Assembly (NCBI GenBank): GCA_041747855.1
Contig: JBGTEJ010000048.1
Span: forward strand, 19,018-83,017
From: Acidimicrobiia bacterium
GTDB taxonomy: Bacteria > Actinomycetota > Acidimicrobiia > Spongiisociales > ZC4RG35
Direction: 5' to 3'
DNA length: 64,000 bases
Within the stretch, counting starts at the first letter, position 1, and the number at the start of each line of letters is the position of its first letter. A model generated the notes under the pieces. The model searched no databases, had not been told where the DNA came from, and worked only from the letters and a program-made list of their open reading frames with translations. A program made the translations under genes and the position numbers. This document shows, piece after piece, positions 4,515 to 48,101 of the stretch.

Positions 4515-4538
4515 GTAACGGGAGGTTAGTGATTCAGC

Positions 4539-7126: not shown

Positions 7127-7197
7127 GCGATCCCTGGTCAAGTTTCCCGGCGCCCCCCGACGCCCAACGGCGTGACCCTTCGACAGCGGATAGCCGG

Positions 7198-8562: not shown

Positions 8563-8604
8563 CTAGTCATTATGGCCGACTCGGAGACACCTGCCTCCGG
8601 ACGG

Positions 8605-8994: not shown

Positions 8995-9072
8995 TCAGAA
9001 TACGCCCGCTCTGCTCTTTGACCCATAGCCAAAACTCCAACCCACAGGCGGACTAGTCCGCCGACGGAGAGG

Positions 9073-10320: not shown

Positions 10321-10329
10321 CCCTGAACC

Positions 10330-16940: not shown

Positions 16941-19055
16941 TCAACTGTTGAGGATGACAACCGGACAGGGAGCTGTCCTGATGATCTGTTCCACCCTCGG
17001 GCCGAGGTAGAGCCGGCGGCTGCCGGCCCGCACGCTGGTGCCCATGACCATGAGGTCGGCGTTGGTCGCCTGGACCGCTTCAAGAATGCCCGACTCGACA
17101 TCGATCGCCTCGAGCACGAAGGTCTCGATCTGCTGCCCGAGCTGAGCTGCCACGGTTTCGAGCTCCTCGGTGACGTCACCACCCAGCGCGTAACGGCTGG
17201 TCGGCACCCGGGTGGACACCACGACGTGGACCCCGGTGACCACAGAATCGGAACCGGCCACCGCAAGGGCGAGATCAGCAGCGTTGCGCGAGCTCGTGCT
17301 CCCGCTTATCGGCACCAGGATCCGGTTTGGTTTCCATCCGGAGGGAACGTCATCGCCCCTGATCACGAGTGTCGGACAGCGGGACAGTTTGATCAGGTCG
17401 TCGATGACCCGCCCGAATATCTCCTGGTCACTGTCGGCCAGGGCGGGAGTGCCTATGACCAGTAAGTCGTAGTCGGCTTCAGCCTCCCGGAGGATGTGGT
17501 CGACCGGCTCGTCACCTGAGATCGCTCTCGTCGTAGTGGATCCCTTGTCGAAGAGGCGACTCACTTCGTCCAAGTACCTATTGGCCATCGACTTCTGTCC
17601 GTTCGAGTAGACGGCAATGAGGCTCGTGGATATATCGCCACTCCGGGCTAGTCGTGCAACGAGTGCGGCCTGAATGGTCTGGGTCCCGGCAAGATGTTCT
17701 CTGGGTCGGACGGGGACGAGGATCCGTCTGATGCCCGCGGCGAAGCTCCTGGCCAGGATCTCTTCTTTGACGAGCCGTTGTTTCTCCTCCTCCCCTGGCT
17801 CCACGCGGGCCAGGAAGTACTTGATGGCAAACGGTGCCATGAGGGATGTGACCACAGCCATGACCACGATGATCGAGAACATCTCCTGACTGAGGATGCC
17901 GAGGGAGAGGCCGATCGTGGCGACGATGATCTCGACCGCCCCGCGTGCGTTCAGCCCGGCCCCGTAAGCAAGTGACGACCAGTGGTCTTGCTTGGAGAGG
18001 TAGCGGGCGCCCAGGTAAGCACCAACTACCTTGCCGAAAGTGGCAACTGCGATCACCGCAATCGTGATCAGCAGTAGGTCTGGTTCGAGGATCGCCCGAA
18101 TGTTGACTTTGAGTCCGGCAACAGCAAAGAAAATTGGGGCGAACACAGCGAGAGTGATGCTCTCTAGCTTCCGAACCGTGTCCGATGGCATCCTCGGCAG
18201 ACGTCCAAAAAGGATCCCGATGGCGAAGGCGCCAATGACCGGCTCGAGGTTCATCGCCTGGCTGAAGCCACCCCACGCGAATGCAAGAACGACGACCAGT
18301 GTGAGTACGAAGTCAGGCCCGCGAAACCGATCCTGGACGAGCGTGAGGCCCTTGTCCACCAGGAAGCGGCCAACGCTGGCGGTGGCGAGAACGAACAGGG
18401 CGACCATCCCCACGGTCTGAACCACGGTCCCGGTACTCAGAGCTTCGGCGCCAGCGAGGGCGGTAACCAGACCCAGGAGAGTCCATCCGGTGATGTCATC
18501 GATCATTCCAGCGGCGAGAACGGTCTGTCCGAACTCTCTTCGCATAAGGTCAAGGTCCATCAGGATTTTTGCCAACACCGGAATGGCGGAAATCGACAGA
18601 GCAGTTGCAAGGAAGAGCGCGAAAATTGTCCGTTGCGCGGGGTCGGCGAGAACCAACTCGGGGAGCATGAATCCCAGTACCAAGCCTGACGCGAAAGGAA
18701 CGATCAGTCCACCGACGGCGATGCCGGCGGCGACACCTATCCGACGGCGGATCAGGCCGAGGTCGGTCTCCAGGCCGGTGACAACTAGAAGCAGCATTAC
18801 ACCAACCAGGGCCACGACTTCGAGCATGTAGCCCTGGACGGCTGTCTGTGGGACGATCCAGCGTCCGATGACGGGCACCAAGCCGGAGAGCAGCGACGGC
18901 CCGAGAATCACTCCAGCGAGGATCTCACCGACGACAGTTGGCTGTCTGAACCGGGTGGCAATCCCACCGAAGAGTCGTGCCGCGAAAAGCAGGGCGGCGA
19001 TCTGCACAACCAGCTGTAGCACTTCGTTGTGCGAGGCGGCGCTAAACGGCTCCAC
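16941..19055 (-). CDS. Cation:proton antiporter (CPA2/Kef-like) fused to two C-terminal universal stress protein (USP) domains
   Basis: 704 aa. The N-terminal ~400 aa is a polytopic Na_H_Exchanger-type domain. The C-terminus has two USP modules (ILVPVRPREHLAG...LVIG and ILVPISGSTSSRNA...LMVMGT). GTG start with GGGAGGAG directly upstream. Confidence 0.85.
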   Translation of the reverse strand: MEPFSAASHNEVLQLVVQIAALLFAARLFGGIATRFRQPTVVGEILAGVILGPSLLSGLVPVIGRWIVPQTAVQGYMLEVVALVGVMLLLVVTGLETDLGLIRRRIGVAAGIAVGGLIVPFASGLVLGFMLPELVLADPAQRTIFALFLATALSISAIPVLAKILMDLDLMRREFGQTVLAAGMIDDITGWTLLGLVTALAGAEALSTGTVVQTVGMVALFVLATASVGRFLVDKGLTLVQDRFRGPDFVLTLVVVLAFAWGGFSQAMNLEPVIGAFAIGILFGRLPRMPSDTVRKLESITLAVFAPIFFAVAGLKVNIRAILEPDLLLITIAVIAVATFGKVVGAYLGARYLSKQDHWSSLAYGAGLNARGAVEIIVATIGLSLGILSQEMFSIIVVMAVVTSLMAPFAIKYFLARVEPGEEEKQRLVKEEILARSFAAGIRRILVPVRPREHLAGTQTIQAALVARLARSGDISTSLIAVYSNGQKSMANRYLDEVSRLFDKGSTTTRAISGDEPVDHILREAEADYDLLVIGTPALADSDQEIFGRVIDDLIKLSRCPTLVIRGDDVPSGWKPNRILVPISGSTSSRNAADLALAVAGSDSVVTGVHVVVSTRVPTSRYALGGDVTEELETVAAQLGQQIETFVLEAIDVESGILEAVQATNADLMVMGTSVRAGSRRLYLGPRVEQIIRTAPCPVVILNS

Positions 19056-19065
19056 TGCTCTCCTC

Positions 19066-19185
19066 CCTCTGTGCCTACGGGGTTAGCTGCCGGGCTCGGG
19101 CTGGAAGGTGCCCTACCCGGCTTTCGCCGGGATTCGCCCCGTTGTCGGGTCCCCCGTCCCGATCACTCGGGTTCGGCGTCACGGA
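19066..19185 (-). promoter_or_regulatory. c-di-AMP riboswitch (ydaO-yuaA / kimA class) in the 5' leader of the CPA-USP antiporter gene
   Basis: The minus-strand RNA reads 5'-GACGCCGAACCCGAGUGAUCGGGACGGGGGACCCGACAACGGGGCGAAUCCCGGCGAAAGCCGGGUAGGGCACCUUCCAGCCCGAGCCCGGCAGCUAACCCCGUAGGCACAGAGGGAGGAG-3'. Both pseudo-symmetric halves (GCCGAAcCC...GGGACGGGGGAcCC and GGGGcGAAUCC-hairpin-UAGGGCACC) and the 3' segment CCCG.GCCCGGCAGCUAACCCCGuAGGCA fit the ydaO architecture as recalled from the T. tengcongensis crystal construct. The SD lies immediately 3' of the aptamer. Confidence 0.6.
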
Positions 19186-19325
19186 ATCGTACCCGTTCGT
19201 GAGCAAACATCAGACGCCAACACGCTACGACCCTTCCGCCGGGCCTAGCCTCCCTGCCAGAGCGCGGTGCCACACAGGCGGCCGCCTCGTGTTCGTCAGC
19301 GACACCGATGCTGTAGGGTTATCAG

Positions 19326-23784: not shown

Positions 23785-24801
23785 TCAGTCGCGCAACAGC
23801 GGCGCTACCTCTTTGCCCAAGAGTTCGATGGACCTGATCACCGTCTCGTGGTCCATGGTCCCAACGCTCATGTGCATCTCGAACCGATCGAATCCGAGCA
23901 CATCTCTCCATCGGGCGATCTTGGCCGCCACCATCTCGGGATCGCCGATCACGAGAGATCCTTCGGGACCTGTCATCCAATCGAACTGGTCTCGGGTCAT
24001 GGGGCCCCATCCCCGCTCTCTTCCGAGACGTGTCATCGCCACCGAATAGGAGGGATAGAAGGTTTCGACCGCCTCCTCTGTGGTTTCAGCGATCAGACCG
24101 TGAGCATGCACCGACACCGGATACTCCTCAGGGTCACGCCCGGTCTCGATCAGGGTTCGCCGATAGAGGTCGGTAAGACTGGAGAAGCGATCAGGGCTCC
24201 CGCCGATGATGGCCAAAGCAAGTCCGAGACCCCGGGTCCCGGCCCTGACCACCGAGGCTGGCGTACCTCCCACAGCAATCCGGATTGGAAGCTGACGTTC
24301 CGGTCTCGGGTAGACACCCTGGCCGAGGATCGGGGACCGATGCTGGCCTGACCATTCGATGACCTCGTTGTCCCGAATCTGGAGGAGGAGGTCCAGCTTC
24401 TCGGCAAACAGTTCGTCGTAGTCCTCCAGCTCATAGCCGAACAGCGGGAACGACTCGATGAACGACCCCCTGCCTACCAGAAGCTCGGCCCGTCCTGACG
24501 AGATGAGGTCGAGGGTGGCATATTGCTGAAAAACGCGAACTGGATCGTCCGTCGAGAGGATGGAGACGGCCGGAAACAGTCTGATACGACTGGTTCGTCC
24601 CGCTGCCGCCGCCAGCACCACCACCGGTGCCGATGCTGCAAAGTCCGACCGATGATGTTCTCCAAGACCGTAGACATCGAGACCCACCTCCTCGGCGACG
24701 ACGATCTCGTCGATCACCTGTCGGAGCCTCTCGCCATGGCCGACTGGATCCCTGCCGGGAGCCGGGATCGTCTCGGCGAAGCTGGTTATGCCGAGCTCCA
24801 C
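23785..24801 (-). CDS. LLM-class flavin-dependent oxidoreductase (luciferase-like monooxygenase family)
   Basis: The start is re-assigned to the GTG at 24799-24801 (VELGITSFAETIP...), which lies 1 nt after the pirin stop and is preceded by GGAGG. The track ORF to 24867 would overlap pirin by 65 nt. Confidence 0.75.
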   Translation of the reverse strand: MELGITSFAETIPAPGRDPVGHGERLRQVIDEIVVAEEVGLDVYGLGEHHRSDFAASAPVVVLAAAAGRTSRIRLFPAVSILSTDDPVRVFQQYATLDLISSGRAELLVGRGSFIESFPLFGYELEDYDELFAEKLDLLLQIRDNEVIEWSGQHRSPILGQGVYPRPERQLPIRIAVGGTPASVVRAGTRGLGLALAIIGGSPDRFSSLTDLYRRTLIETGRDPEEYPVSVHAHGLIAETTEEAVETFYPSYSVAMTRLGRERGWGPMTRDQFDWMTGPEGSLVIGDPEMVAAKIARWRDVLGFDRFEMHMSVGTMDHETVIRSIELLGKEVAPLLRD

Positions 24802-24802
24802 A

Positions 24803-25815
24803 TCACACCTCCAGTCTGTCGCGATGTTCGACCCGTCCATCCGAATGAAGGGCGAAACGACCTTCACCGCGGGCGTGGACAGGATCGGGGCGTGACCATG
24901 GCCACCCGCCGAACTGAGTGGCGTAGTAATCGGTTACCGCTTGATGAAGCTCTTCAGGGGTGTTCATCACGAAGGGGCCCATCTGGAAGACGGGGGCGCC
25001 AATCGGCATACCCTCGAGGAGGAGGAACTCGGCAGGCCCGCCACGGTTGGTTATTCGAGCCGACTCAGTCGGGTCGAGTCGGGCACCGATCTTGGCCTCG
25101 ACACTGACACCGTCGACGACAACGTCATCGCCGATGAAGCAATGGAGCATCCGGTTGACTCCCGGAGCTGAGGATGGCAGCTCCCATGTGGCCTCGGCTT
25201 CGAGTCTGATCAGCCAGATCCCGAGATGACCGTCCCGGTTGGAACCCCACGAGTCGGGGGGAGGCGAAGGTGGTCTCGACTCTCCGAGCGATCCGGCGAT
25301 GACATCGACTGAGACTCCACGAACCGGGTGAACGGTGGGAATGTCCTCGCTCCACAGCATCCCGAAGTAGGGATCGACCATCTTCGACCGGGGTGGGAGG
25401 TTGAGCCAGATCTGAAACAGCTCCATGGTGTTGGGGCCACCGGGATCGAGGAGGGGGAACATCTCGGAGTGCATGATCCCGCTTCCCGTTGTCAGCCACT
25501 GGACATCACCTTCGCCATAGCGGGCGGTTGCCCCCAGAGAGTCGGAGTGGTCGACATATCCCCTGCGCACTACGGTGACCGTCTCGAAGCCCCGATGCGG
25601 ATGACGGGGAAAGCCAGGCACATCCACACCGTGGTACATGCTCCATCCGTCCCGGTAGGAGAAGTCGGAGCCGAGGTTGCGACCGTCAAGAGGCATGGTC
25701 GGACCGAGCTCGTGGTTACCGGCCGGATAGTGGTCCACATGGTGGACCGTCATGAGGAAAGGGTCCAAACCCTGCCAGGGGAATCCTAGTTGGTGGAGTT
25801 CGAGTACAGCTGCCA
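24803..25815 (-). CDS. Pirin family protein (cupin; quercetin 2,3-dioxygenase-like)
   Basis: It has HPHRGFETVTVVRRGYVDHSDSLG and GDVQWLTTGSGIMHSEM (cupin metal-site motifs). The start is trimmed to the ATG at 25815 (MAAVLELHQLGF...), and the track ORF is over-extended upstream. Confidence 0.85.
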
Positions 25816-25958
25816 TCAGTTGATATGACAACCATCCTACCTGGTCGGTTGTTCCCGGGACCAAATTGGCGACGATGACCCGTCCTCGAGACCGTCGGCC
25901 TGTCGGAACTCTCCGGTCGATGTTTAGTCGAAGGCAAAACGGGATAATCTTGAGACAC

Positions 25959-26810
25959 ATGGTCAGGTTCAGAAAAACTCCAACGGGCCCTGGCCAGGTC
26001 CTCGACCGGAGGGGCGGAGGTGCCAGCCCCGGTATGAAGCTCGGAGTCGGGGGCGGCGGGATCGGAGCGATCATCCTCATGGTCATCCTCTTCCTCAGCG
26101 GAGGGGGCACCGACCTCGGCGACTTGACCAACATGCTCCAGCCGCCCTCTCAGACCGGCGGTGTCCCCCTCGACCCGTCACAAGACCCCGACGCCGATCT
26201 AGTGGAGTTTCTCGGACTGGTCCTACAGGACGCCCAGGCAATGTGGCAGCAGATATTCACCGATTCGGGTCTCACCTACCGCCCCACCAACCTGGTCGTC
26301 TTCAACGGGGCCACCCAGTCGGGATGCGGTGGAGCACAGGCGCAGTTCGGACCCCACTACTGCCCCGCCGACGAGCTGGTCTACATGGACCTCGACTTCC
26401 TTCAAGAGCTGCAAGAACGATTCGGCGCAGTTGGTGACACCGCTCAGGCCTACATCATGGCCCATGAGATAGCCCATCATGTCCAACACCTGCTCGGCAT
26501 CACCGATGAGGCACGATCCCAAGGGGGCAATCAGGGCTTGATCGCACTCGAACTCCAGGCCGATTGCTTCGCTGGCATCTGGCTCCACACCCTCGAGAGC
26601 GGGACGTCGGCTGCCGTCCTCGAAGAAGGAGATCTCGAAGAGGCCCTCAACGCGGCGGCTGCCGTGGGTGACGACAACATCCAACGTCAGACTTCAGGAC
26701 GGGTCTCGCCTGACTCCTTCACTCATGGCACCTCGGAGCAGAGATCCAATTGGCTTCTCAGAGGCTTCCGGTCCGGGAACCCGAGCGACTGCGACACCTT
26801 CTCCAGCTGA
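25959..26810 (+). CDS. Putative neutral zinc metallopeptidase (YpfJ family), single N-terminal TM
   Basis: It has HExxH in MAHEIAHHVQ, an N-terminal ...VLDRRGGG... and a Gly-rich TM. The start is the ATG at 25959. Confidence 0.75.
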   Translation: MVRFRKTPTGPGQVLDRRGGGASPGMKLGVGGGGIGAIILMVILFLSGGGTDLGDLTNMLQPPSQTGGVPLDPSQDPDADLVEFLGLVLQDAQAMWQQIFTDSGLTYRPTNLVVFNGATQSGCGGAQAQFGPHYCPADELVYMDLDFLQELQERFGAVGDTAQAYIMAHEIAHHVQHLLGITDEARSQGGNQGLIALELQADCFAGIWLHTLESGTSAAVLEEGDLEEALNAAAAVGDDNIQRQTSGRVSPDSFTHGTSEQRSNWLLRGFRSGNPSDCDTFSS

Positions 26811-26829: not shown

Positions 26830-27831
26830 TCATCCCAGCGCCGGGATGACAGTCTCCCCGTATGCCTCGAGTGTGCCTTCCTGATCGTCGTGCATCAGAT
26901 AGATGCCGAACTGATCGACCCCTAACTGCTTGAGCTGGCTGAGCTTGTCGATGTGGTCCTGGACGGTCCCGAGGACGCAGAAGCGATCCACGATCTCGTC
27001 TGGCACGAAGTCGGTCGAAGGATTGCCTGACCTGCCGTGATGGTCGTAGTCATAGCCCTCCCGAGCCCTTATGTAATCGGAGAGGGCTCTGGGCACCTTC
27101 TCCTCGTCGTCTCCATAGCGTTTGACCATGTCGGCCACGTGGTTACCGACCATCCCGCCGAACCAGCGGAGCTGCTCCCGCTGATGCTCGAGGTTGTCGC
27201 CTACATAAGCGGGAGCAACCACACAGATCTTCAACGCTTCCGGATCACGTCCCGCCTCGGCGGCCGCCGCCCTGACCGCTCCCATCGTCCACTCCAGAAC
27301 CTGCGGATCAGCGAGCTGGAGGATGAACCCGTCGGCATGACGACCAATCGTTTCCAGGGCTTTCGGCCCATATCCAGCCACCCACATCGGAAGGTCCCAA
27401 CCCTCCCCCACCCACGGGAATCGCAATGGCTTACCGTTGTAGGCCACCTCCTCCCCGGCAACCAGGGACTTGATCACTTCCATCGATTGGACCATCGTCT
27501 CCAGGGTCGTGGGCTGCTCACCTATGTAGCGAAGGGCGGAATCTCCCCGCCCCATGCCACAGATGGTCCGACCCCCGTACATATCGTTGAGGGTGGCGAA
27601 CAAGGATGCGATGACGGTCCAGTCCCGGGTCCCCGGGTTGGTGACCATCGGCCCCACGACCATGCGTTCGGTCTCGGCGAGCATCCTCGAATAGATGACG
27701 AAGGGTTCTTGCCAAAGGACATGGCTGTCGAACGTCCAACCATGGCTGAAGCCCAACCCCTCGGCCATTCTCGTCAGCTCGATGACCCGACTCGCAGGTG
27801 GATCGGTCTGGAGCACAACACCGAAATCCAT
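26830..27831 (-). CDS. LLM-class (luciferase-like) F420/flavin-dependent oxidoreductase
   Basis: 333 aa with a TIM-barrel LLM fold (MDFGVVLQTDPP...). It lies 29 nt downstream of dihydropyrimidinase in the same operon. Confidence 0.8.
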   Translation of the reverse strand: MDFGVVLQTDPPASRVIELTRMAEGLGFSHGWTFDSHVLWQEPFVIYSRMLAETERMVVGPMVTNPGTRDWTVIASLFATLNDMYGGRTICGMGRGDSALRYIGEQPTTLETMVQSMEVIKSLVAGEEVAYNGKPLRFPWVGEGWDLPMWVAGYGPKALETIGRHADGFILQLADPQVLEWTMGAVRAAAAEAGRDPEALKICVVAPAYVGDNLEHQREQLRWFGGMVGNHVADMVKRYGDDEEKVPRALSDYIRAREGYDYDHHGRSGNPSTDFVPDEIVDRFCVLGTVQDHIDKLSQLKQLGVDQFGIYLMHDDQEGTLEAYGETVIPALG

Positions 27832-27860
27832 CTCTACTCAGTTCCCAGAGGAGTGGCAGG

Positions 27861-29282
27861 TCAAATCCGGTACTGACTGGTCGAACGGTGCAGATACTCA
27901 CCGTCGCCGGCCTTCCCGTGATAGGTGTTGTCCGAGATGATCACCTTTCCCTTGGACATCACCGTGTCGACTTTGCCCTTGACCTCCCATCCCTCGTAAG
28001 CGGAGTAGTCGACCGCCATGTGGTGGGTATCGGCTGAGATGGTCCGGGTCGAATTCGGGTCCAGGATCACTATGTCGGCGTCTGACCCGACGGCGATGGT
28101 CCCCTTCTTCGGATACAGGCCGAACATCTTGGCGGGGGTTGTCGCCATGATCTCGACGAAGCGATTCAGACCGATCCGCCCCTCCGAGACACCAGCATTG
28201 AAGATCAGCTCCATCCGATCCTCGACCCCGGGCATCCCATTGGGGATCTTGGTGAAATCGCCCTGTCCGAGCTGCTTCTGAGTGCCGAACTGCGGATGGT
28301 CGCCCATACAGAACGGGCAGTGGTCGGTGGACACCACTTGCAGATCGTTGGTGCGCAGACCCTGCCAAAGACGATCTTGATGACCGGCAGCCTCGTCCCG
28401 GAGAGGCGGTGAGCACACGTACTTGGCGCCTTCGAAACCATCCCCCAGGTGATCGAGGTTCAGAAGGAGATACTGAGGGCAGGTTTCGGCGTATACGTTC
28501 AACCCCCGGTCACGGGCCTCGATCACCTCGTCGAGTGCCTCCTTGGCTGTCAGATGGACGATGTACAACTGGACCCCGGTGAGCTCGGCCAGCTTTATCG
28601 CCCGATGGGCAGCCTCCCCTTCGAGCAGGGACCTCCGGACGATCCCGTGGTAGATCGGGTCGGTCTCGCCCCGGTCGAGGGCTTGTTGAGCCAGGACGTC
28701 GATGGCGATCCCGTTCTCGGCGTGCATGCAGATTGTCGCACCGTCCTCAGCGGCCTTCTGCATCGCCCTGACAATCTGACCGTCATCGGAGTAGAACACA
28801 CCCGGGTAGGCCATGAACATCTTGAAGCTGGTGACCCCCTCCCTCACCAACTGTTCCATCTCCTTCAAGGTCTGGTCGTTGATGTCTCCCGTGATCATGT
28901 GAAAGCCGTAATCGATGGCGCAGTTGCCCCGGGCCTTCTCCATCCAGGTCTCCCATCCCTCCATCGCAGAATCCCCTTTTGCCTGCACCGCGAAGTCGAT
29001 GATGGTGGTGGTACCGCCGAAGGCCGCCGCCCTGGTGCCTGTCTCGAACGTGTCGGCGGCCGAGGTCCCGCCGAATGGGAGTTCCATGTGGGTATGGACA
29101 TCGATCCCTCCTGGTAAGACCAGTCTGCCCGCGGCGTCGATCACCTCGGCCTCGCCGACATCCAAAGATCCGGGGGCGAGCAGAGCCTCCACCTTGCCGG
29201 CGTTCACCAATACGTCGGCGGTCATCGTCTCGACGGCGGTCACGACAGTGCCGTTCTTGATCAGGGTTCTCGTCATTTCCAT
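27861..29282 (-). CDS. hydA: Dihydropyrimidinase / D-hydantoinase
   Basis: 473 aa: HTHMELPFGG, carboxylated-Lys region FKMFMAY, and VVSTDHCPF. Cyclic amidohydrolase family. Confidence 0.9.
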   Translation of the reverse strand: MEMTRTLIKNGTVVTAVETMTADVLVNAGKVEALLAPGSLDVGEAEVIDAAGRLVLPGGIDVHTHMELPFGGTSAADTFETGTRAAAFGGTTTIIDFAVQAKGDSAMEGWETWMEKARGNCAIDYGFHMITGDINDQTLKEMEQLVREGVTSFKMFMAYPGVFYSDDGQIVRAMQKAAEDGATICMHAENGIAIDVLAQQALDRGETDPIYHGIVRRSLLEGEAAHRAIKLAELTGVQLYIVHLTAKEALDEVIEARDRGLNVYAETCPQYLLLNLDHLGDGFEGAKYVCSPPLRDEAAGHQDRLWQGLRTNDLQVVSTDHCPFCMGDHPQFGTQKQLGQGDFTKIPNGMPGVEDRMELIFNAGVSEGRIGLNRFVEIMATTPAKMFGLYPKKGTIAVGSDADIVILDPNSTRTISADTHHMAVDYSAYEGWEVKGKVDTVMSKGKVIISDNTYHGKAGDGEYLHRSTSQYRI

Positions 29283-29286
29283 CTCC

Positions 29287-30582
29287 TCATCTGTCTCTGG
29301 CCCTGAGGATGGCGGTCCTCAAACGTTCCAATCCGTCGTCGGCTTCTTGTTCCGTCAGGTTCAAGGCCGGGGCGATTCTCAGCGAGTTGCCGTACAGACC
29401 CCCCTTCCCGACCAGGAGCCCTTCCACCCTCGCTTCTTCCATGGCCGCCGCCGTCAACTCTCGGTCAGGGGCAAGCGTTTCGGGATCGGCGAACTCAATC
29501 GCCAACATCAGACCTCTCCCTCTCACCTCGACGATCTCCGGGACTTCATCGGATATCTGGTCGAGTCCGTTCTTCAAGCGGTTGCCCACCTTCAGGGCGT
29601 TGGTCTGGAGATCATTGGCGAGGATGTACTCGAGGTTGGCCATCGCCCCGGCCGTCGCCAGCGGATTGCCACCGAAGGTGGATATCGAGTTCGCCTGGAG
29701 GGAGTCCATGAGCTCGGCGCGGGCCACCACTCCTCCCAGAGCAAGACCGTTCCCGATCCCCTTGGCAAAGGTGAGCATGTCGGGGACGATGCCGTGAGCC
29801 TGATATCCCCAGAAGTTCTCCCCGGTCCGTCCCCAACCGGTCTGTACCTCGTCAGAGATGAAAAGGATCTGGTTTCGGTCGAGGACTGTCTTCATGGCAC
29901 CCAGCAAACCGTCCGGAGGGGTGACGAAGCCGGCGACACCCTGAATCGGCTCGGCGATCATCGCGGCAACCCTGCCGGAGGTCGCCACTTCGAGCATGTT
30001 CTCGAGATCGGCGACACAGGCTGCGACGAACTCCTCTTCAGACAGATGCTTGAACGGGCCCCGCAGCCGGTTGCCCCCGTGGACATAGGTCACGTTGAAG
30101 GGGCTATTCGAAGTCGCCGACCATGAGCGTTGGCCGGTGACTGCGACCGTGGAATGAGACTTTCCGTGGTAGCTGCCACGGAAGGCGAGGACCTGATTCG
30201 AGCTGGTGTACTGGGTGGCAATCATCAGCGCAGCATCGTTGGCCTCGGTCCCGGAGTTGGTGAAAAACACCTTGGCGTCAGGAATGCCGCTGAGTTCGGC
30301 GATCTTCTCGGCCAACTCGATCTGTTGCTCGATCAGATAGAGGGTGGAGGTGTGCAGCATCCGATCGGCTTGTGCCTTGATGGCCTCGACCACCGCCGGT
30401 AGTCGATGGCCGGACATAGTGACCAGGATCCCACCGAAGAAGTCGAGGTAGGTGTTCCCCTCGGCATCGGTCACATGTCTGCCGTCACCATCGACCAGTG
30501 CGATGGGTTGGTCGTAATACAGGATCATCCAGTCGGGAAGAACTTTGCGATGACGGGCAAGGAGTTCTGCGTGCGTGGGCAT
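29287..30582 (-). CDS. Class III (omega-) aminotransferase, beta-alanine/omega-amino acid:pyruvate type
   Basis: PLP fold-type I motifs FISDEVQTGWGRTG and the FAKGIGNG Lys. The start is trimmed to the ATG at 30582 (MPTHAELLARH...). Confidence 0.85.
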   Translation of the reverse strand: MPTHAELLARHRKVLPDWMILYYDQPIALVDGDGRHVTDAEGNTYLDFFGGILVTMSGHRLPAVVEAIKAQADRMLHTSTLYLIEQQIELAEKIAELSGIPDAKVFFTNSGTEANDAALMIATQYTSSNQVLAFRGSYHGKSHSTVAVTGQRSWSATSNSPFNVTYVHGGNRLRGPFKHLSEEEFVAACVADLENMLEVATSGRVAAMIAEPIQGVAGFVTPPDGLLGAMKTVLDRNQILFISDEVQTGWGRTGENFWGYQAHGIVPDMLTFAKGIGNGLALGGVVARAELMDSLQANSISTFGGNPLATAGAMANLEYILANDLQTNALKVGNRLKNGLDQISDEVPEIVEVRGRGLMLAIEFADPETLAPDRELTAAAMEEARVEGLLVGKGGLYGNSLRIAPALNLTEQEADDGLERLRTAILRARDR

Positions 30583-30662
30583 ATGGGCGTGGTCTCCTCT
30601 CTGCCCCTGAGAGTAGTGGTCGGGGCGGTTCCTTGACGTGGCCACGGCTAACGTGGCAATCC

Positions 30663-31040
30663 GTGTTCAGGTCTCTGACGGCGCCGGTTCCGGTCCTCCG
30701 GTTGGAGGGCTTGGCCCTACTTGGGATCGGGATCTACGCCTTCACCCTCGCCGACGTCTCGTGGTGGTGGTTCGCCTTGTTCTTACTGGTTCCCGACGTC
30801 TCGATGATTGGTTATCTCCAAGATCCTGGGCTCGGTGCAACGATTTACAACATCGGCCATTCGATGCTCGGCCCGGTCCTGCTGTTCGCTTGGTCGTGGG
30901 CAGGGGGGCCCGACGTGGCGTTCGCCACCGGTGCCATCTGGCTATCCCACATCGGAATGGACCGGATGTTCGGCTACGGGTTGAAGTATGGCGACGACTT
31001 CACACACACCCACCTTGGGACCATCGGCCTCAGCGACTGA
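30663..31040 (+). CDS. DUF4260-family small membrane protein
   Basis: GTG start after the aminotransferase start region. Product VFRSLTAPVPVLRLEGLALLGIGIYAF...GYLQDP...IYNIGHSM...HIGMDRMFGYGLKY. Confidence 0.5.
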   Translation: MFRSLTAPVPVLRLEGLALLGIGIYAFTLADVSWWWFALFLLVPDVSMIGYLQDPGLGATIYNIGHSMLGPVLLFAWSWAGGPDVAFATGAIWLSHIGMDRMFGYGLKYGDDFTHTHLGTIGLSD

Positions 31041-31070
31041 TACGCCTACCTCCGGGAGTCCGGGTTGGCC

Positions 31071-31913
31071 TCATGGCTCGACCAGCGGACCGTATGCATC
31101 GGGCCGGCGGTCCCGATAGAACGCCCAGACCTTGCGGACCTCTTCGACCATATCCATCTCCAGGTCGCGGACCACCAGCTCCTCCTCGGTGTCGGAGGCA
31201 GGCTCCCCCACAAACTGGCCCCTTGGGTTCACGAAGTAGGAGGAGCCGTAGAAGTCGTTGTCACCGAACTCTTCCTTCCCTACACGGTTGATCGCCCCGA
31301 TGAAGTACTCGTTGGCAACCGCCGACGCCGGCTGCTCGAGCTTCCAGAGGTACATGGACAGACCCCGGCTGGTGGCCGACGGATTGAAAACGATCTTGGC
31401 CCCGGCGAGGCCCAGCGCCCTCCACCCCTCGGGGAAGTGCCGGTCGAAACAGATGTAGACCCCGATCCTCCCCACCGCGGTGTCGAACACGGGATAACCG
31501 GTGTTCCCGGGCCGGAAGTAGAACTTCTCCCAGAAACCGTTCACATGGGGTATGTGGGTTTTGCGGTACTTCCCGAGGTAGGTTCCGTCGGCGTCGATGA
31601 CTCCTGCGGTGTTGTAGAGGAAGCCGTCATCCTCCTTCTCATACATCGGCACCACCAGCACCATGCCGGTTTCTTTGGCCACCTGGACCATGCGACGCAT
31701 CGTCGGCCCATCGGGAATCGGCTCTGCAGTGTCCTTGTGGTCGTCTTCCTGCACCTGGCAGAAGTAGGGGGCGTTGAAGAGCTCCTGGAAGCACATAACC
31801 CGCGCTCCCTGTTCGGCCGCCTGATGGGCGTATCCGACGTTCTTCTCGACCATCGACTCCTTGTCGCCGGTCCAGGAGGTCTGTACCAACGCGGCGCGGA
31901 CAATGTTGTTCAT
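31071..31913 (-). CDS. Beta-ureidopropionase / N-carbamoyl-beta-amino-acid amidohydrolase (CN-hydrolase/nitrilase superfamily)
   Basis: 280 aa with the E-K-C triad context MCFQELF ... GVYICFDRHFPE. Confidence 0.8.
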   Translation of the reverse strand: MNNIVRAALVQTSWTGDKESMVEKNVGYAHQAAEQGARVMCFQELFNAPYFCQVQEDDHKDTAEPIPDGPTMRRMVQVAKETGMVLVVPMYEKEDDGFLYNTAGVIDADGTYLGKYRKTHIPHVNGFWEKFYFRPGNTGYPVFDTAVGRIGVYICFDRHFPEGWRALGLAGAKIVFNPSATSRGLSMYLWKLEQPASAVANEYFIGAINRVGKEEFGDNDFYGSSYFVNPRGQFVGEPASDTEEELVVRDLEMDMVEEVRKVWAFYRDRRPDAYGPLVEP

Positions 31914-32953: not shown

Positions 32954-33376
32954 TCAGCCGAGAGATGCGGAGAGTGATATGTCCACATTTCCGGCCAGGG
33001 CTTTCGAGACCGGGCAGTTGACCTTGGCCGTCTCCGCCAACTCGACAAACTGCTCTTCAGATATGCCGTCGACGACCCCCACAACCGACAGCTCCATGGT
33101 GGTGATACCGGTTCCGGGAACGAAGGTTGCGGTGGCTTCCACATCGAGACTCGTAGCGGGAGTTTGGTTCTTGGCCAGGATGTTGGAGAAAGCCATCGAG
33201 AAGCAGGATGCATGGGCACCAGCGATCAACTCCTCGGGGGTGGTGGTGGCCTCCTCACCTTCGGCACGAGCCTTCCAGTTCACCGGGAGTGGCCCGACGG
33301 CGCCACTTGCGAAACTGGTCACTCCGCTTCCACTGAACAGGTCGCCTTCCCAATGGGTCTGCGCGGTGCTCTTCAT
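32954..33376 (-). CDS. OsmC/Ohr family peroxiredoxin-like protein
   Basis: 140 aa: GAHASCFSMAF...AKVNCPVS (two conserved Cys). Confidence 0.8.
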   Translation of the reverse strand: MKSTAQTHWEGDLFSGSGVTSFASGAVGPLPVNWKARAEGEEATTTPEELIAGAHASCFSMAFSNILAKNQTPATSLDVEATATFVPGTGITTMELSVVGVVDGISEEQFVELAETAKVNCPVSKALAGNVDISLSASLG

Positions 33377-33435: not shown

Positions 33436-33858
33436 TCAGTCTTCGACGGTGATGTTGCCCCTCATCTCGGCGTGGATACCGCAGAAGTACTCGAAGGTCC
33501 CGGCCCGCTCGAAGGTGTAGAAGAAGCTTTGGCCCGTGAGAGTCCCGCTGTTCCAACCACCTTCGGTCGAGGTCCAGGTGTGAGGGAGACTGTCATCATT
33601 GGTGACCAGAATCGTGTCCCCAACACCGACCGTGTCAGGCCCGGAGAACGCGAATCCCTCGATCCTGAGTTCATGGTCCGCGTCATCCGGAATCGTCGTG
33701 GTCGAACCTGCGACCGTCGACGAAGTGTCGGTGCTCCCGGTGGTGGTGATTGGTTGGCTGATCGTGGTGGTGGGCAGGCTGCTCGTCGTGGTCCCGGCCG
33801 TTCCACCACATCCAGTGACCAGTGCCAGAACACAGGCAATCACAATCGACCTACGCAT
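33436..33858 (-). CDS. Lipoprotein with cupredoxin (plastocyanin/pseudoazurin-like) domain
   Basis: Lipobox LVTGCGG, a Thr-rich linker, and copper-ligand context HTW...YFCGIHAEMRG. Confidence 0.6.
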   Translation of the reverse strand: MRRSIVIACVLALVTGCGGTAGTTTSSLPTTTISQPITTTGSTDTSSTVAGSTTTIPDDADHELRIEGFAFSGPDTVGVGDTILVTNDDSLPHTWTSTEGGWNSGTLTGQSFFYTFERAGTFEYFCGIHAEMRGNITVED

Positions 33859-33906: not shown

Positions 33907-35409
33907 CTATCGGTTCGCCGGGAACCCAAGATCGACACCTCGGTGGATCGGGTCAGCCCACCTCGAGATCACAACCTTCTGACGGGTGTAGAAGTGGACC
34001 CCTTCCGGGCCGTAGATTGCATGACTCCCGAAGATGGAGTCCTTCCAGCCACCGAATGAATAGAAGGCGAGGGGCACCGGAATCGGAACATTGATGCCCA
34101 CCATCCCGACCTGGATCTCGCTGGCGAACTTCCGAGCCGCACCGCCGTCGTTGGTGAAGACGGCAGTGCCATTTCCGTATCGGTTGGAGTTGATCAGCGC
34201 GATCGCCTGGTCGAAGTGCTCCATGCGCACCGTCGACAGGACCGGTCCGAAGATCTCGTCCTGGTAAATCGACATTTCGGGCGTCACCTGATCGAAAAGA
34301 GTCGGGCCGAGGAAGTAGCCATCCTCATGACCGTCGACTTTCAGGCTCCGCCCGTCGGCCAACAGGTGGGCACCCTGCTCGACACCAGACCCGATGTATC
34401 CACGCACCCTGTCGAGATGCTCCTTGGTGATCAGAGGACCCATGTCAACTCCGGGCCGGTCTCCAGGACCTACTTCGATCTTTTCCATTCGAGCCTGTAT
34501 TCCGTCCAGAAGACGATCGCCCGCCTCTCCGACGGTCACCAGCGCCGATATAGCCATGCACCGCTCCCCGGCCGACCCGAACCCGGCTGACACCGCCGCG
34601 TCGGCCGCCAGATCTATGTCGGCGTCCGGCAGAACGATCATGTGGTTCTTGGCCCCACCGAGAGCCTGCACACGTTTCCCGTGACTGGTACCGGTCTCGT
34701 ATATGTGCCGAGCGATCGGGGTCGACCCGACGAAAGAGATTGCAGCCACACCGGGGTGGGTGATCAAGGCTTCAACCGCCTCGCGATCTCCGTTGACGAC
34801 GTTGAACACTCCGCCGGGAAGTCCCGCCTCCGCCAGCATCTCGGCGGCCATAAGAGAGACGGAAGGATCTCTCTCCGAAGGCTTGAGAATGAAGGTGTTG
34901 CCGGTCGCGATGGCCAATGGGTACATCCACATAGGCACCATCGCCGGGAAGTTGAACGGAGTGATCCCCACCACCACACCAAGCGGCTGTCGCATGGTGT
35001 AGGTGTCGACACCCGTTGTGACCTGTTCTGAGAACTCTCCCTTCTGAAGATGGGCGATATTGCAGGCAAACTCGACGACTTCGAGACCCCTCTGGACTTC
35101 TCCGAGAGCGTCATCGAGGGTTTTTCCATGCTCCGCGGTCAGCTGCGCGGCTATGTCCCGACGACGGGCCGCGACTAGTTCCCGGTAGGCAAACATAATG
35201 TTCTGCCTCTGTGTGAGCGAGGTGACCCGCCAGGTTTCGAAGGCCCGGGCGGCGGTTCCGACTGCCAGGTCGACGTCCGCCGGGGTGGCTAGCGCTACCT
35301 CTCCGGTTTGCTCACCAGTGGCCGGGTTGAATACCGGCCCGTGGCGGGTGGATCCACCGGGTGTCGGAGCCCCGCCGATCCAGTGCTGAATCTGCTTCAT
35401 ACCATCCAA
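33907..35409 (-). CDS. mmsA: CoA-acylating methylmalonate/malonate-semialdehyde dehydrogenase
   Basis: 500 aa ALDH with ILKPSERDPS, catalytic Cys in GSAGERCMAIS, and EIFGPV. The start is 35409 or the ATG 9 nt downstream (MKQIQHWIGG). Confidence 0.9.
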   Translation of the reverse strand: MDGMKQIQHWIGGAPTPGGSTRHGPVFNPATGEQTGEVALATPADVDLAVGTAARAFETWRVTSLTQRQNIMFAYRELVAARRRDIAAQLTAEHGKTLDDALGEVQRGLEVVEFACNIAHLQKGEFSEQVTTGVDTYTMRQPLGVVVGITPFNFPAMVPMWMYPLAIATGNTFILKPSERDPSVSLMAAEMLAEAGLPGGVFNVVNGDREAVEALITHPGVAAISFVGSTPIARHIYETGTSHGKRVQALGGAKNHMIVLPDADIDLAADAAVSAGFGSAGERCMAISALVTVGEAGDRLLDGIQARMEKIEVGPGDRPGVDMGPLITKEHLDRVRGYIGSGVEQGAHLLADGRSLKVDGHEDGYFLGPTLFDQVTPEMSIYQDEIFGPVLSTVRMEHFDQAIALINSNRYGNGTAVFTNDGGAARKFASEIQVGMVGINVPIPVPLAFYSFGGWKDSIFGSHAIYGPEGVHFYTRQKVVISRWADPIHRGVDLGFPANR

Positions 35410-35424: not shown

Positions 35425-35934
35425 TCAGCCGGGTCTGGTCGGTGGCGGTCGTTCGGGGATGGTGGTCGTTGTAGGTGGAAGGGTCGGTGGCGGCCGGGGC
35501 AATGTGGTTTCGGTTCGCCCGGGGACAGTGGTGCTGGTTGTGGGGCTTCGGTGACCCTCCCCATCCCTCTCCGGCTCCGTGGTCGTGGTGGGGTTCGGTC
35601 TCTGGTCGGTCGTGGGGATCGTCCCCGACGATCCGGACCCTTCATCGAGCTGACTATCGAAGCTGGCCGAGTCGAGTTCGGGAAGTCTGATGTTGACACG
35701 CTCCATGGCCTGGCGCACCGGATAGAGAAGATCTCCGGGAGCCGAACGCTCGGCGGCAAATGCGACAACCGGAAGCAGGAGGACGAGCGAGACGGCTACG
35801 GCCAGGATCCGTCCGGGTCGAGTCCGATGAGAGCGCGCCTCCCCCAGAACACGATCAATCGTGTCGAGATGACGCTCTCTGGTGGCGGCATCAACTTCGA
35901 TACGGGCCCGACCGAGGTGCTCACGCCATCTCAT
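35425..35934 (-). CDS. Putative anti-sigma factor (single TM, extracytoplasmic Pro/Thr-rich region)
   Basis: It overlaps the ECF sigma gene by ATGA. It has a cytoplasmic ~45 aa segment, a TM (ILAVAVSLVLLLPVVAFAA) and a PT-rich tail. No ZAS motif. Confidence 0.5.
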   Translation of the reverse strand: MRWREHLGRARIEVDAATRERHLDTIDRVLGEARSHRTRPGRILAVAVSLVLLLPVVAFAAERSAPGDLLYPVRQAMERVNIRLPELDSASFDSQLDEGSGSSGTIPTTDQRPNPTTTTEPERDGEGHRSPTTSTTVPGRTETTLPRPPPTLPPTTTTIPERPPPTRPG

Positions 35935-36527
35935 GAGTCATCCCCCAGGATCTCCCTCAGCCGGCTCTCGCCCCGTTCGACGAGGCTATAGGCGGCCCGT
36001 CGTGTCGTGCCCAGCACTGTCGCTATCTCTTCGCCGGTAAGGCCGACCACGTTGGCAAGCAGGACAGCCGCCCGTTGCCTACTGCCCAGCATCGACAAAG
36101 CGGTCTCGAGTTCTGGACCGAGTTGGTTCTGCAAGGGGTCGTCTTCTACCGAGATGTCGGGAACACTGTGGTGTGGCACTTCCCGGTTCCTCGACCGGCG
36201 ACGGTACTCGTCCAGACATCCGAATCGGACCGAGCGAAACAGCCAGGACCGCAGAGACCGGCCATCTCCCTTGAGTTTGGGCGCTGCCTTGACCAGTTCC
36301 ACGAACGTCTGCTGGACAATGTCCTCGGCAGTACGTCGGTCCCCCACCATCGCAAATGCGAACGAGGCGAGGTCATCGACGGTGGCGTGATAAACGGCCG
36401 CAAAGGCAGTGTTCGATCTGGCCCGAATACCGTCGATATGGACGTCGAGCGGATGCGGCGGGGTGTGGGTCACACTCGTGATCCACACCCCCGATGAGGC
36501 TGTCTGCGGGAGAGCGCTGACAGACAT
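35931..36527 (-). CDS. ECF (sigma-24-type) RNA polymerase sigma factor
   Basis: Region 2 reads AEDIVQQTFVELVKA, and region 4 reads LGSRQRAAVLLANVVGLTGEEIATVLGTTRRAAYSLVERG. Confidence 0.8.
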   Translation of the reverse strand: MSVSALPQTASSGVWITSVTHTPPHPLDVHIDGIRARSNTAFAAVYHATVDDLASFAFAMVGDRRTAEDIVQQTFVELVKAAPKLKGDGRSLRSWLFRSVRFGCLDEYRRRSRNREVPHHSVPDISVEDDPLQNQLGPELETALSMLGSRQRAAVLLANVVGLTGEEIATVLGTTRRAAYSLVERGESRLREILGDDS

Positions 36528-37041: not shown

Positions 37042-37470
37042 TCACGATTCCTTCAGATATCGCACTCCAAAGACACGCATCCTGGTGATTTCGATCCGGA
37101 TTCCACTCGAGTAGTCGGCGGCGAAACTGGCGGGGGTGTAGCCCAGATCCCTGATCGCATCCAGGTACTTCTCGACATAGCCGGAAAGCGAGTCGGCCGA
37201 TGGGAGCGTCGGGTCAACCACGGCGCGGCCCTCGAGGCTCAAGCATCCCGCACCGGATGGATCGGCACGCAAGTTGAAGGCCACCCGTTCGTTGGCCTCG
37301 ATGTTGCCCATGCGGAGAGAATCCGGGCGGCTGTATACGATCAAGTCCTCACCCTGACGAAAGAACCAAACCGTCGATGTCTGAGGCTGTCCCTCCCGGC
37401 TCACGGTGGTCAGGAAGCCAACAAGCGCCGCATCCAGAGCCTCGGCCACGCCAGCCTTCTCCATGATCAT
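37042..37470 (-). CDS. PPOX-class (pyridoxamine 5'-phosphate oxidase-like) F420-dependent oxidoreductase
   Basis: 142 aa, split-barrel family: GFLTTVSREGQPQTSTVWF...GNIEANERVAF. Confidence 0.7.
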   Translation of the reverse strand: MIMEKAGVAEALDAALVGFLTTVSREGQPQTSTVWFFRQGEDLIVYSRPDSLRMGNIEANERVAFNLRADPSGAGCLSLEGRAVVDPTLPSADSLSGYVEKYLDAIRDLGYTPASFAADYSSGIRIEITRMRVFGVRYLKES

Positions 37471-44900: not shown

Positions 44901-45419
44901 TATGATCGCCGCCTTGGCGCCGAGCAGATCGAACTGGGTTTCGATGATGAGGAGGTCGGCACCACCGTCGATGAGCCCCTGGCTCTGGACCCGGTAGGCG
45001 TCAGAAAGGTCGGAGAAGGCGACCTGGCCAAGTGTGATGAACTTGGTGCCGGGCCCGATCGAGCCGGCCACGAATCTCTCTCGTCCATCGTCGGCGATAT
45101 ACCGGTCAACCACGCCACGGGCGATGGAGGCCGAAGCTGCCGAGATCTCATAGGCGCGGTCGGCGATGTCGTACTCCCCCAGCGGTATTGCAAAGGCACC
45201 GAAGCTGTTGGTCTCGACCACATCCACCCCGACATCGAGGAAGGAAGCATGAAGGTCATGGATGACATCGGGTCGAGTCACACTGAGGATGTCGGTGCAA
45301 CCCTCGAACTGAGGACCGCCGTAATCGTCCAATGACAGATTCAGTCGTTGGAGGTTGGTCCCGGTCGCACCATCGAACACGACGACGCCCTTGGAAACGG
45401 CATCGAGATAGCCGCTCAT
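41949..45419 (-). CDS. metH: Cobalamin-dependent methionine synthase
   Basis: 1156 aa with all modules: Hcy-binding, pterin-binding, the B12-binding DxHxxG (GDVHDIGKN) and the AdoMet activation domain. Confidence 0.95.
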   Translation of the reverse strand: MSGYLDAVSKGVVVFDGATGTNLQRLNLSLDDYGGPQFEGCTDILSVTRPDVIHDLHASFLDVGVDVVETNSFGAFAIPLGEYDIADRAYEISAASASIARGVVDRYIADDGRERFVAGSIGPGTKFITLGQVAFSDLSDAYRVQSQGLIDGGADLLIIETQFDLLGAKAAIIGARQAMTDLNQDLPIQVQVTIEQTGRMLPGTEMGAALTALAAMRPDVIGLNCATGPLEMWEPLRHLTRHSSVPISAIPNAGLPKVIDGEMAYDLSPSELADHLAQFVTELGVGVIGGCCGTTPEHLAAVIEKVRPLTVKTRSPQPVAAAASIYSQVSFDQDTSFLMIGERANTNGSKAFRDALLDGNLERCVGIGQSQIQEGAHMVDLCVDYVARDGVADMSRLAMAFATDVAVPVVLDSTEPEVMEAGLQRLGGRCVLNSANLEDGEGEGSRLDRVFKLARKYGAAVICLLIDEEGQARTVDWKLRIAHRINDLAVNRYGLSTSDLIFDTLTFPLSTGDNDLRGDAIETLEAIRRIKKELPGSRTVLGVSNISFGLNPSSRRVLNSVFLHEAVEAGLDAAIVHAGKIESLAKVDPEHRQVCLDLIYDRRSEGYDPLERLIDLFADISDEDDTVDRYEGLDVGERLARRIVDGDQRNIVEDLEIALSDGQPPLDIINVHLLAGMKVVGELFASGEMQLPFVLKSAETMKKAVAHLEPKMEKADTGSRGRVVLATVSGDVHDIGKNLVDIILSNNGYEVRNLGIKVGINEMIQAYEESQADAIGMSGLLVKSTLIMRDNLAELERRGLGKVPVLLGGAALTRSYVESDLRSRYQGPLYYGKDAFAGLDAMARIVSGEPAPSPEAPRVRHRPESGGGSVPDRAPSVVSDNHVFKPPFIGSRVVKGIAIDDIVPFINRTALFRNQWQFRPEPGENDRDFKERLGHRLREQLADARRAELLVPQLVYGYFPANGDGDDLIIWEDETRTSQLATLSFPRQQEDPYYCIADFFRPADSGELDYAAFHIVTMGGVVSERTKELFDSDRYQDYLLLHGLGVEMAEALAEYWHHRIRTEWGFVSEDGPNLTGLFRQKYRGGRYSWGYPACPDLEDNETVARILGAERIGITVGEETGYQYQPEQTTSALICHHPQAKYFVARAPRQGRTDPV

Positions 45420-45670
45420 GATGGTGCTCGGTTAGCGCCGGATGACCCGGTCATGGTTCTGCTCCTTTGTCTCACATGAAACGCTTGAGAGAGAACCGTG
45501 AGCCTGAGCCCAAGGTAACTCATCGTCCCAGGCATTGGCACCGTGCTCGGCCCTGTGGCTCTGTCGGTTGCCGCGGCGTCAAAGGGCCTGATCCCTCAGC
45601 CGCTCTAGATGAGCGTTTCTGCTCCACAGGATATCGGCGCGACCCGCCTATTGACAAGACCCAACCCGCA

Positions 45671-48012: not shown

Positions 48013-48101
48013 GTAGCGGCCAGAGTAGAAACCGGTCGACTCTCACCCGGGTAATGGGACACTCGGTCTCAACCGTCTTTGCCAGCAGGTACCGTTGTCC
48101 G

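Follow-up and report, generated by a model that had tools for sequence, protein, structure and literature searches.

A candidate F420H2-dependent uracil/thymine reductase encoded with reductive pyrimidine catabolism genes in an Acidimicrobiia bacterium

We present here the analysis of a 64-kb stretch of DNA from an Acidimicrobiia bacterium (GenBank assembly GCA_041747855.1, contig JBGTEJ010000048.1, positions 19,018 to 83,017; GC content, ~61%), hereafter called the window, which carries genes for the reductive pyrimidine catabolism (Pyd) pathway. One of them, at positions 26830 to 27831 on the minus strand, encodes a 333-aa TIM-barrel oxidoreductase of the luciferase-like monooxygenase (LLM) class, referred to below as the LLM. 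We propose that this protein is probably an F420H2-dependent uracil/thymine reductase which replaces the unrelated dihydropyrimidine dehydrogenase PydA/PreTA. Under this proposal, which has strong genomic support, the reaction and the pathway would be known ones, and the enzyme family and its cofactor would be new to the Pyd pathway. The initial annotation of the window had put the LLM forward as a candidate for this role, and the candidacy is now supported by the F420-class family of the protein and by a conserved Pyd synteny that is free of PreT and PreA.

The LLM was classified with the hidden Markov models (HMMs) of NCBIfam release 20 (June 2026), using the curated family cutoffs. It matches TIGR03842 (F420_CPS_4043) with 563.2 bits against a cutoff of 295.45, over profile positions 1 to 329 of 329; the choice between F420-type and FMN-dependent families, which the initial annotation had left to such a classification, thus falls on an F420-type family. 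TIGR03842 is a “hypothetical equivalog,” and NCBI and JGI call its members only F420-dependent oxidoreductases. PF00296 is the sole Pfam domain of the protein. Its best 13 NCBIfam matches, in which Mer follows TIGR03842, are all F420 LLM families, and flavin mononucleotide (FMN)-type LLM families begin only at an E value of 6e-10. The best 10 sequence matches in the PDB are likewise all F420 enzymes (Mer, FGD2/fHMAD, Adf, and FGD1), and a Foldseek search of the PDB with an AlphaFold (AF2) model of the LLM (predicted local distance difference test score, 80.5; predicted template modeling score, 0.83) returned F420 LLMs as its best 21 matches. By sequence and modeled fold, the LLM belongs to the F420-dependent LLM class, to which it is nearer than to the FMN-dependent enzymes.

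The nearest characterized relative of the LLM is Mer, both by sequence (E value, 6e-33; ~26% identity) and by fold (template modeling score, 0.79). With both enzymes, an sp2 carbon would receive its hydride from F420H2; the context of Mer is one-carbon metabolism, whereas that of the LLM is pyrimidine catabolism. Assignment of the LLM as a Mer was rejected, since it scores 134 bits against a cutoff of 276 with NF002619 and 114 bits against a cutoff of 348.7 with TIGR03555. In the alignment of the two proteins, Glu6 of Methanocaldococcus jannaschii Mer, which is mutated in PDB entry 8qq8 (E6Q) and which we take to be catalytic, pairs with Val6 of the LLM.

The same searches bear on the proposal of a RutA-like role, in which the LLM would be a monooxygenase that uses FMN and opens the pyrimidine ring by oxidation. 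RutA, which acts on uracil, is a member of the LLM superfamily too. It is an FMN/O2-dependent ring cleaver, however, and its model, TIGR03612, gave no match to the LLM at an E value of ≤1e-5, the first FMN-class family of any kind appearing at the value given above. A RutA route would also render dihydropyrimidinase and beta-ureidopropionase unnecessary, and in Proteobacteria the LLM gene shares operons with the genes for F420 biosynthesis and with fno, as described below. Together these results make a RutA-like enzyme barely credible here.

Relatives of the TIGR03842 type are numerous. A word-index search yielded at least 8000 proteins at an E value of ≤1e-20, the top 120 of which are all at least 80% identical to the LLM, and a genome scan placed relatives in at least 598 species genomes. 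Two deep branches, an Actinomycetota-type branch that includes the window and a proteobacterial branch, have a mutual identity of ~44% and nonetheless keep 71 positions at ≥98% conservation, which fits one conserved function. The conserved set includes R257..Y260-D261-Y262..H265-G266, which leads into a loop that is modeled with low confidence (residues 266 to 271). Other conserved polar residues include T64, R69, D97, Q172, N230, and H231.

In the window, the five pathway genes named in the initial annotation were confirmed at their minus-strand coordinates by the open reading frame (ORF) listing and by family scans. Besides the LLM gene, they encode a dihydropyrimidinase (DHP, or PydB; 27861 to 29282), a class-III, GabT-like aminotransferase (AT; 29287 to 30582), a CN-hydrolase of the nitrilase superfamily (31071 to 31913), and the CoA-acylating (methyl)malonate-semialdehyde dehydrogenase MmsA (33907 to 35409). 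Gaps of 4 to 29 nt had been reported for this cluster; that range holds between AT and DHP (4 nt) and between DHP and LLM (29 nt) and fails between the CN-hydrolase and AT, where the interval is 488 nt. Because this interval contains a plus-strand gene (~30690 to 31040), the operon here comprises AT as its first gene, DHP, and the LLM as its last gene, and the CN-hydrolase gene is a separate, convergent unit. The end of the operon converges on a Zn-peptidase gene. At the other end, a GAGGAG motif precedes the AT start at an ATG at 30582; an alternative ORF with a GTG start is longer, reaching 30645. The divergent intergenic region between AT and the plus-strand gene, delimited by sequence inspection at 30583 to 30689, is presumed to be the promoter region of the operon. 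A sigma-70 consensus scan of this region found no site, and sigma-70 and terminator scans of 26.5 to 35.7 kb found fewer sites than in shuffled controls. Rfam models found no element in 30583 to 30689 and no riboswitch on the Pyd operon. From its position between the CN-hydrolase and AT genes, the plus-strand gene splits the Pyd cluster; it encodes a DUF4260 membrane protein (PF14079; E value, 1.8e-39) that lies outside the pathway, and no counterpart of it was found across 80 related genome loci by ORF clustering and tblastn.

No homolog of a canonical first enzyme accompanies these genes. A tblastn search with Escherichia coli PreT and PreA gave nothing below an E value of 0.59, which agrees with the earlier report that PydA/PreTA is absent from the window, and the Cytobacillus and Deinococcus PreT and PreA proteins likewise had no homolog anywhere in the window. 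Between 35 and 56 kb, annotation with Pfam and NCBIfam revealed nothing that resembles a dihydropyrimidine dehydrogenase. As for the cofactor, the initial annotation had cited a PPOX-class protein and other LLM genes of the window as consistent with F420 use. A third LLM gene (48054 to 49082, plus strand) is indeed of F420 class (TIGR03560; 271 bits against a cutoff of 231) and, by that family assignment, shows F420 use by the organism. The neighboring LLM gene at 23785 to 24867 (minus strand) belongs to TIGR03858, which is not an F420 class, and the PPOX-class putative F420 enzyme (37042 to 37470, minus strand; PF01243) scores 116 bits with TIGR03667, just under the cutoff of 125. No cof, fbi, or fno gene was found in the window.

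To describe the Actinomycetota-type branch, one genome per species was scanned, and the 80 loci nearest to the query (64 to 83% identity) were kept. Gene neighborhoods were counted in the 72 loci that span 12 kb or more, using the window proteins as tblastn queries, and ORFs in the high-GC loci were clustered with a caller weighted by GC content at third codon positions (GC3). The 80 loci span Acidimicrobiia, Streptomyces, Amycolatopsis, Kribbella, Kutzneria, Actinoplanes, Dactylosporangium, Pseudonocardia, and Rubrobacter, with a few metagenome-assembled genomes (MAGs) labeled Acidobacteriota, Binatia, or Gammaproteobacteria. The tblastn matches recur on one strand in the order CN-hydrolase, (AT), DHP, (mmsA), LLM. 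Among the 72 long loci, DHP is present in 66 and beta-ureidopropionase in 60, followed by AT (34), mmsA (27), an NCS1 nucleobase permease (19), an NMT1-type ATP-binding cassette (ABC) transporter binding protein (19), and a PucR regulator (8); the identities of the permease, the binding protein, and the regulator were confirmed by Pfam. PreT and PreA were found in none of the 72 within 10 kb of the LLM. Across all 80 loci, DHP accompanies the LLM in 70, AT orthologs of at least 45% identity occur in 37, and mmsA orthologs lie between DHP and LLM in many loci of Acidimicrobiia. Four loci (L033, L035, L062, and L074) lack DHP only because the contig ends upstream. In many genera, Amycolatopsis, Kribbella, and Kutzneria among them, the set is reduced to CN-hydrolase, DHP, and LLM; if the LLM is taken as the reductase, these three genes match the three Pyd steps exactly. 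In Rubrobacter, an M20 hydrolase stands in for the CN-hydrolase and the LLM is retained. A Rubrobacteraceae MAG (L032; OZ243918.1, positions 2635 to 11014) carries a short-chain dehydrogenase/reductase (SDR), DHP (44% identity), AT, an M20 peptidase, NCS1, a LysE exporter, and the LLM, and its beta-ureidopropionase step appears, from these genes, to be taken by the M20 enzyme instead of a nitrilase-type one.

This minimal set also speaks to a role for the LLM later in the pathway, which the initial annotation had offered as a second option. The LLM might, for example, be an F420-dependent malonate-semialdehyde reductase forming 3-hydroxypropionate (compare RutE/YdfG/PydE), or might act on another intermediate, with the first step encoded elsewhere. 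F420 LLMs do include dehydrogenases at the alcohol and aldehyde level (Adf, FGD, and fHMAD), and in many Acidimicrobiia loci the LLM gene directly follows mmsA. Many clusters, however, consist of CN-hydrolase, DHP, and LLM without an aminotransferase, so that no semialdehyde would be formed locally, and clusters with mmsA would have no need of a semialdehyde reductase. A later role would furthermore leave the first reaction without a gene in about 160 loci. Because the conserved core consists only of the LLM, DHP, and beta-ureidopropionase, action on a pathway intermediate is less likely than reduction of the pyrimidine, and we consider it quite improbable.

The proteobacterial branch was reached through a plasmid collection, where 10 Leisingera plasmids and a Paracoccus alcaliphilus plasmid (L085) encode TIGR03842 members that share ~45% identity with the query. 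In both genera the TIGR03842 gene is annotated directly 3′ of cofG-cofH-cofD-cofC-cofE-npdG, the last of which encodes Fno. In Proteobacteria it is the terminal gene of this complete F420 biosynthesis operon with fno, and the operon is often fused with Pyd genes. On a plasmid of Leisingera caerulea (NZ_CP081074.1, record 155760 to 171227; L084 and L087), pntAB, AT, a Zn-dependent (M20) hydrolase gene, the dihydropyrimidinase gene hydA, and an NCS1 nucleobase symporter gene lie divergent from the cof-fno-LLM genes. A metagenome scan with the Leisingera protein added 80 loci (L092 to L171; ~44% identity to the query), and counts were made on the 36 of at least 12 kb. In 31 of the 36, cof genes are present and fno immediately precedes the LLM. 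A beta-ureidopropionase of M20 or CN-hydrolase type occurs in 19, DHP and mmsA in 11 each, AT and the NCS1 permease in 10 each, and pntAB in 5. PreT and PreA were found in none of the 36 long loci and in none of the 80. In L112, cofG-H-D-C-E-fno-LLM-AT-mmsA-M20 runs without interruption on a single strand, next to DHP and NCS1; L160 has the order cof-fno-LLM-M20-DHP; and L139 and L159 have cof-fno-LLM-M20-pntAB with DHP, NCS1, and CN-hydrolase genes nearby. The proteobacterial branch supports, independently, both the F420 dependence and the link to pyrimidines, and it suggests that F420 synthesis in Proteobacteria serves pyrimidine degradation.

Canonical clusters were examined for comparison. 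A Cytobacillus plasmid cluster contains genes for a CN-hydrolase, a PreT-like protein, PreA, HydA, NCS1, PucR, MmsA, and AT, and a Deinococcus plasmid cluster contains genes for a PreT-like protein, PreA, HydA, an ABC transporter, a Zn-hydrolase, PucR, AT, and MmsA. In plasmid records of Mycetohabitans, Burkholderia pyrrocinia, Pseudorhodobacter, and Clostridium butyricum, preA lies 0.2 to 3 kb from hydA. The LLM clusters share this canonical cast (class-III AT, mmsA, NCS1 or ABC uptake, and PucR), with the LLM in place of PreT and PreA, which is the pattern expected of a non-orthologous displacement of one step. Among 84 PreA-bearing plasmid records, Leisingera is missing from the tally of organisms with at least 4 records, and hydA and the LLM gene are both present on each of the 10 Leisingera plasmids. 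PreT and PreA were found in none of the 160 LLM loci (80 genome and 80 metagenome). In an earlier survey, 3419 candidates had PydB within 10 ORFs (PMC7332683).

PydA (PreT-PreA) and the ferredoxin-dependent PydAc (PMC7332683) catalyze the reaction that is proposed for the LLM, the conversion of uracil or thymine to the 5,6-dihydro form, and PydA/PreTA occupies an equivalent position in the cluster, beside DHP, beta-ureidopropionase, AT, mmsA, NCS1, and PucR. The proteins themselves differ: PydA combines a dihydroorotate dehydrogenase (DHODH)-like FMN domain and Fe-S ferredoxin domains and in some forms also has an FAD/NAD(P)H domain, whereas the LLM is a single luciferase-like TIM barrel. With no homology to PydA or PreT-PreA, the LLM would be an analog in function at most and not a member of that family, and its proposed electron donor is F420H2 instead of the NAD(P)H or ferredoxin of the PydA types.

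Several points weigh against the proposed reductase. The functional assignment of TIGR03842 made here comes from genomics alone, for a family that NCBI names only by its model number, and F420 binding by the LLM is predicted from homology and gene linkage. In the window, the CN-hydrolase lies outside the transcription unit of the LLM. In the proteobacterial branch, about 10 of the 36 long loci have cof-fno-LLM with the Pyd genes out of reach; several of these may be truncated, because they end just upstream of cofG. In the genome scan, six long loci have the LLM without nearby Pyd genes (Holophagales, Thermoanaerobaculia, a Gammaproteobacteria MAG, a Binatia MAG, “Candidatus Multivorans,” and a Solirubrobacteraceae MAG), and the first two of these have an isolated LLM gene flanked by selB and polA. 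Finally, the absence of PreT and PreA covers up to 10 kb from the LLM in the loci and the 64 kb of the window, and not whole genomes.

The last two points leave some room for the LLM being a conserved neighbor whose role is regulatory or unrelated, the first step being carried out by a canonical PydA/PreTA encoded elsewhere in each genome; the LLM occurs alone in several Acidobacteriota loci, and the absence of PydA is established at the scale of loci and window. Same-strand adjacency of the LLM and the Pyd genes is nonetheless kept across phyla while other genes rearrange, and PydA normally clusters with PydB (PMC7332683), as it does in Cytobacillus and Deinococcus, which contrasts with the complete lack of PreT and PreA in the 160 loci. 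We therefore consider a bystander role very unlikely.

The remaining enzymes of the window were examined for their fit to uracil and thymine as substrates. DHP scores 587 bits with the TIGR02033 equivalog model (cutoff, 393), and MmsA scores 707 bits with TIGR01722 (cutoff, 448). AT matches PF00202 with 317 bits and passes no NCBIfam equivalog cutoff; its nearest PDB entries are 4-aminobutyrate aminotransferases, and we infer that it is a beta-alanine/beta-aminoisobutyrate aminotransferase. The CN-hydrolase (PF00795) also passes no equivalog cutoff, its best NCBIfam match being aguB with 252 bits, under the cutoff of 410. Among its PDB relatives, N-carbamoylputrescine amidohydrolase (E value, 4e-59) is slightly nearer than the eukaryotic beta-ureidopropionases 2vhh (4e-54) and 6ftq (1e-49). 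It is predicted to be an N-carbamoyl amidohydrolase acting as the beta-ureidopropionase PydC, a role supported by its conserved position beside DHP: in 62 of the 80 genome loci, DHP is preceded on its own strand by a CN-hydrolase gene.

These scores leave some room for a cluster that degrades another cyclic ureide or a modified pyrimidine, which the LLM would then reduce; a uracil substituted at position 5, a compound resembling hydantoin, or a base derived from a nucleoside would be examples. Dihydropyrimidinases/hydantoinases and N-carbamoyl amidohydrolases take many substrates, the CN-hydrolase falls below every equivalog cutoff with aguB as its best match, and some plasmid hydA genes stand outside a Pyd context, as in loci of Burkholderia humptydooensis and Paracoccus denitrificans. 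Against this, DHP exceeds the cutoff of the dihydropyrimidinase equivalog, the accessory genes (GabT-like AT, mmsA, NCS1, and PucR) match those of canonical PreTA clusters for uracil and thymine, and MmsA suits both the C3 and the C4 semialdehydes that the breakdown of uracil and thymine yields. A substrate other than these two is unlikely in our judgment.

If the LLM is a uracil/thymine reductase, the pathway would run as follows. F420H2, made from NADPH by Fno or, in Actinomycetota, by FGD, would reduce uracil or thymine by hydride transfer to C6, with protonation of C5 by an acid of the protein, to give 5,6-dihydrouracil or dihydrothymine. Dihydropyrimidinase would open the ring, the CN-hydrolase would produce beta-alanine or beta-aminoisobutyrate with NH3 and CO2, the class-III aminotransferase would form (methyl)malonate semialdehyde, and MmsA would convert this to acetyl- or propionyl-CoA. 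Substrate, direction of the reaction, and chemistry of the LLM are predicted here from its family and gene context. Fno is co-operonic with the LLM in Proteobacteria, sometimes together with PntAB. Since F420 combines a low potential with obligate two-electron hydride chemistry (PMC8498797), reduction of uracil or thymine without Fe-S clusters is plausible.

Two systems in the literature resemble the one proposed. In mureidomycin biosynthesis, reduction of the uracil ring at C5-C6 depends genetically on a putative F420/FMN oxidoreductase (PMC10714638). This enzyme, SSGG-03002, and its napsamycin counterpart, NpsU, reduce the uracil ring of a uridyl-peptide antibiotic in secondary metabolism and are likened to the LLM by description; no in vitro activity was obtained (PMC10714638). 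In Chloroflexota uric acid clusters, a “yanthine reductase” was proposed from gene neighborhood alone to be an F420-type PF00296 LLM that reduces a uracil-type ring, replacing a PydA-like reductase in the dearomatization (PMC12507026). It differs from the LLM in pathway (uric acid), substrate, and phylum, and the likeness drawn here is again one of description. The same 2025 paper gives only NAD(P)H and ferredoxin variants of the Pyd pathway. A 2021 review of F420 (PMC8498797) does not mention uracil and lists the reason for F420 in Proteobacteria as an open question; for Paracoccus in standard culture it reports only trace F420. The view in the initial annotation that the LLM would represent an undescribed cofactor solution agrees with a literature search, which left subscription-only papers outside its scope and found no link between F420 and the Pyd pathway and no account of such an enzyme.

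If correct, the proposal would fill a hole in the pathway and supply the missing first Pyd enzyme for much of Actinomycetota, many of which (Streptomyces, Amycolatopsis, and abundant environmental Acidimicrobiia) are without a first-step gene beside their Pyd cluster. F420H2 would be a third electron donor, besides those of the NAD(P)H- and ferredoxin-dependent dihydropyrimidine dehydrogenases, and would act on an unrelated fold in a small, Fe-S-free ene-reductase for pyrimidines. The large family TIGR03842, at present without an assigned function, would gain one, and F420 would have its first physiological role in Proteobacteria, where cof-fno is often physically fused with pyrimidine catabolism genes. 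A broader statement, that TIGR03842 consists of F420H2-dependent dihydropyrimidine dehydrogenases and that many marine and soil Proteobacteria keep and move cofGHDCE-fno-Pyd as a module mainly for pyrimidine catabolism, is in our estimate evenly balanced between being right and wrong.

Other features were noted in the LLM loci and in the window. Three loci with an LLM of 68 to 70% identity between selB and polA (L023, L027, and L028, from Thermoanaerobaculia, Holophagales, and “Candidatus Multivorans”) have no Pyd or cof gene within 10 kb. The neighbors of the LLM in Acidobacteriota (lpxC, a histidine kinase, selB, polA, an FG-GAP protein, and an SNF transporter) are uninformative on function. 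Downstream of the Pyd operon of the window, a pirin-domain protein gene (24803 to 26134, minus strand) and the TIGR03858 (Atu2307-family) LLM monooxygenase gene overlap or abut, and Logan contigs L001 and L002, which are identical, show this pair after the LLM as well; the TIGR03858 gene (LLM2) recurs in L004 and L005. An OsmC peroxiredoxin gene (32954 to 33376) and two small ORFs lie between the CN-hydrolase gene and mmsA. A small lipoprotein-like ORF at 33436 to 33858 (minus strand) has the C-terminal motif YFCGIHAEMRG and is cupredoxin-like on a reading of its sequence. Just upstream of mmsA, in the minus-strand region 35425 to 36527, an extracytoplasmic function (ECF)-type sigma factor gene (35931 to 36527; Sigma70_r2 and r4_2) is followed and overlapped by a 169-aa ORF that has no family match and possibly encodes an anti-sigma factor. 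Two riboswitches are predicted on the minus strand: a c-di-AMP riboswitch (RF00379; 89.9 bits; 19058 to 19188), directly upstream of a gene for a 704-aa Na+/H+ exchanger and Usp protein (16941 to 19055), and an S-adenosylmethionine (SAM; S-box) riboswitch (RF00162; 65.9 bits; 45517 to 45615), upstream of the gene for MetH, a B12-dependent methionine synthase of 1156 aa (41949 to 45419).

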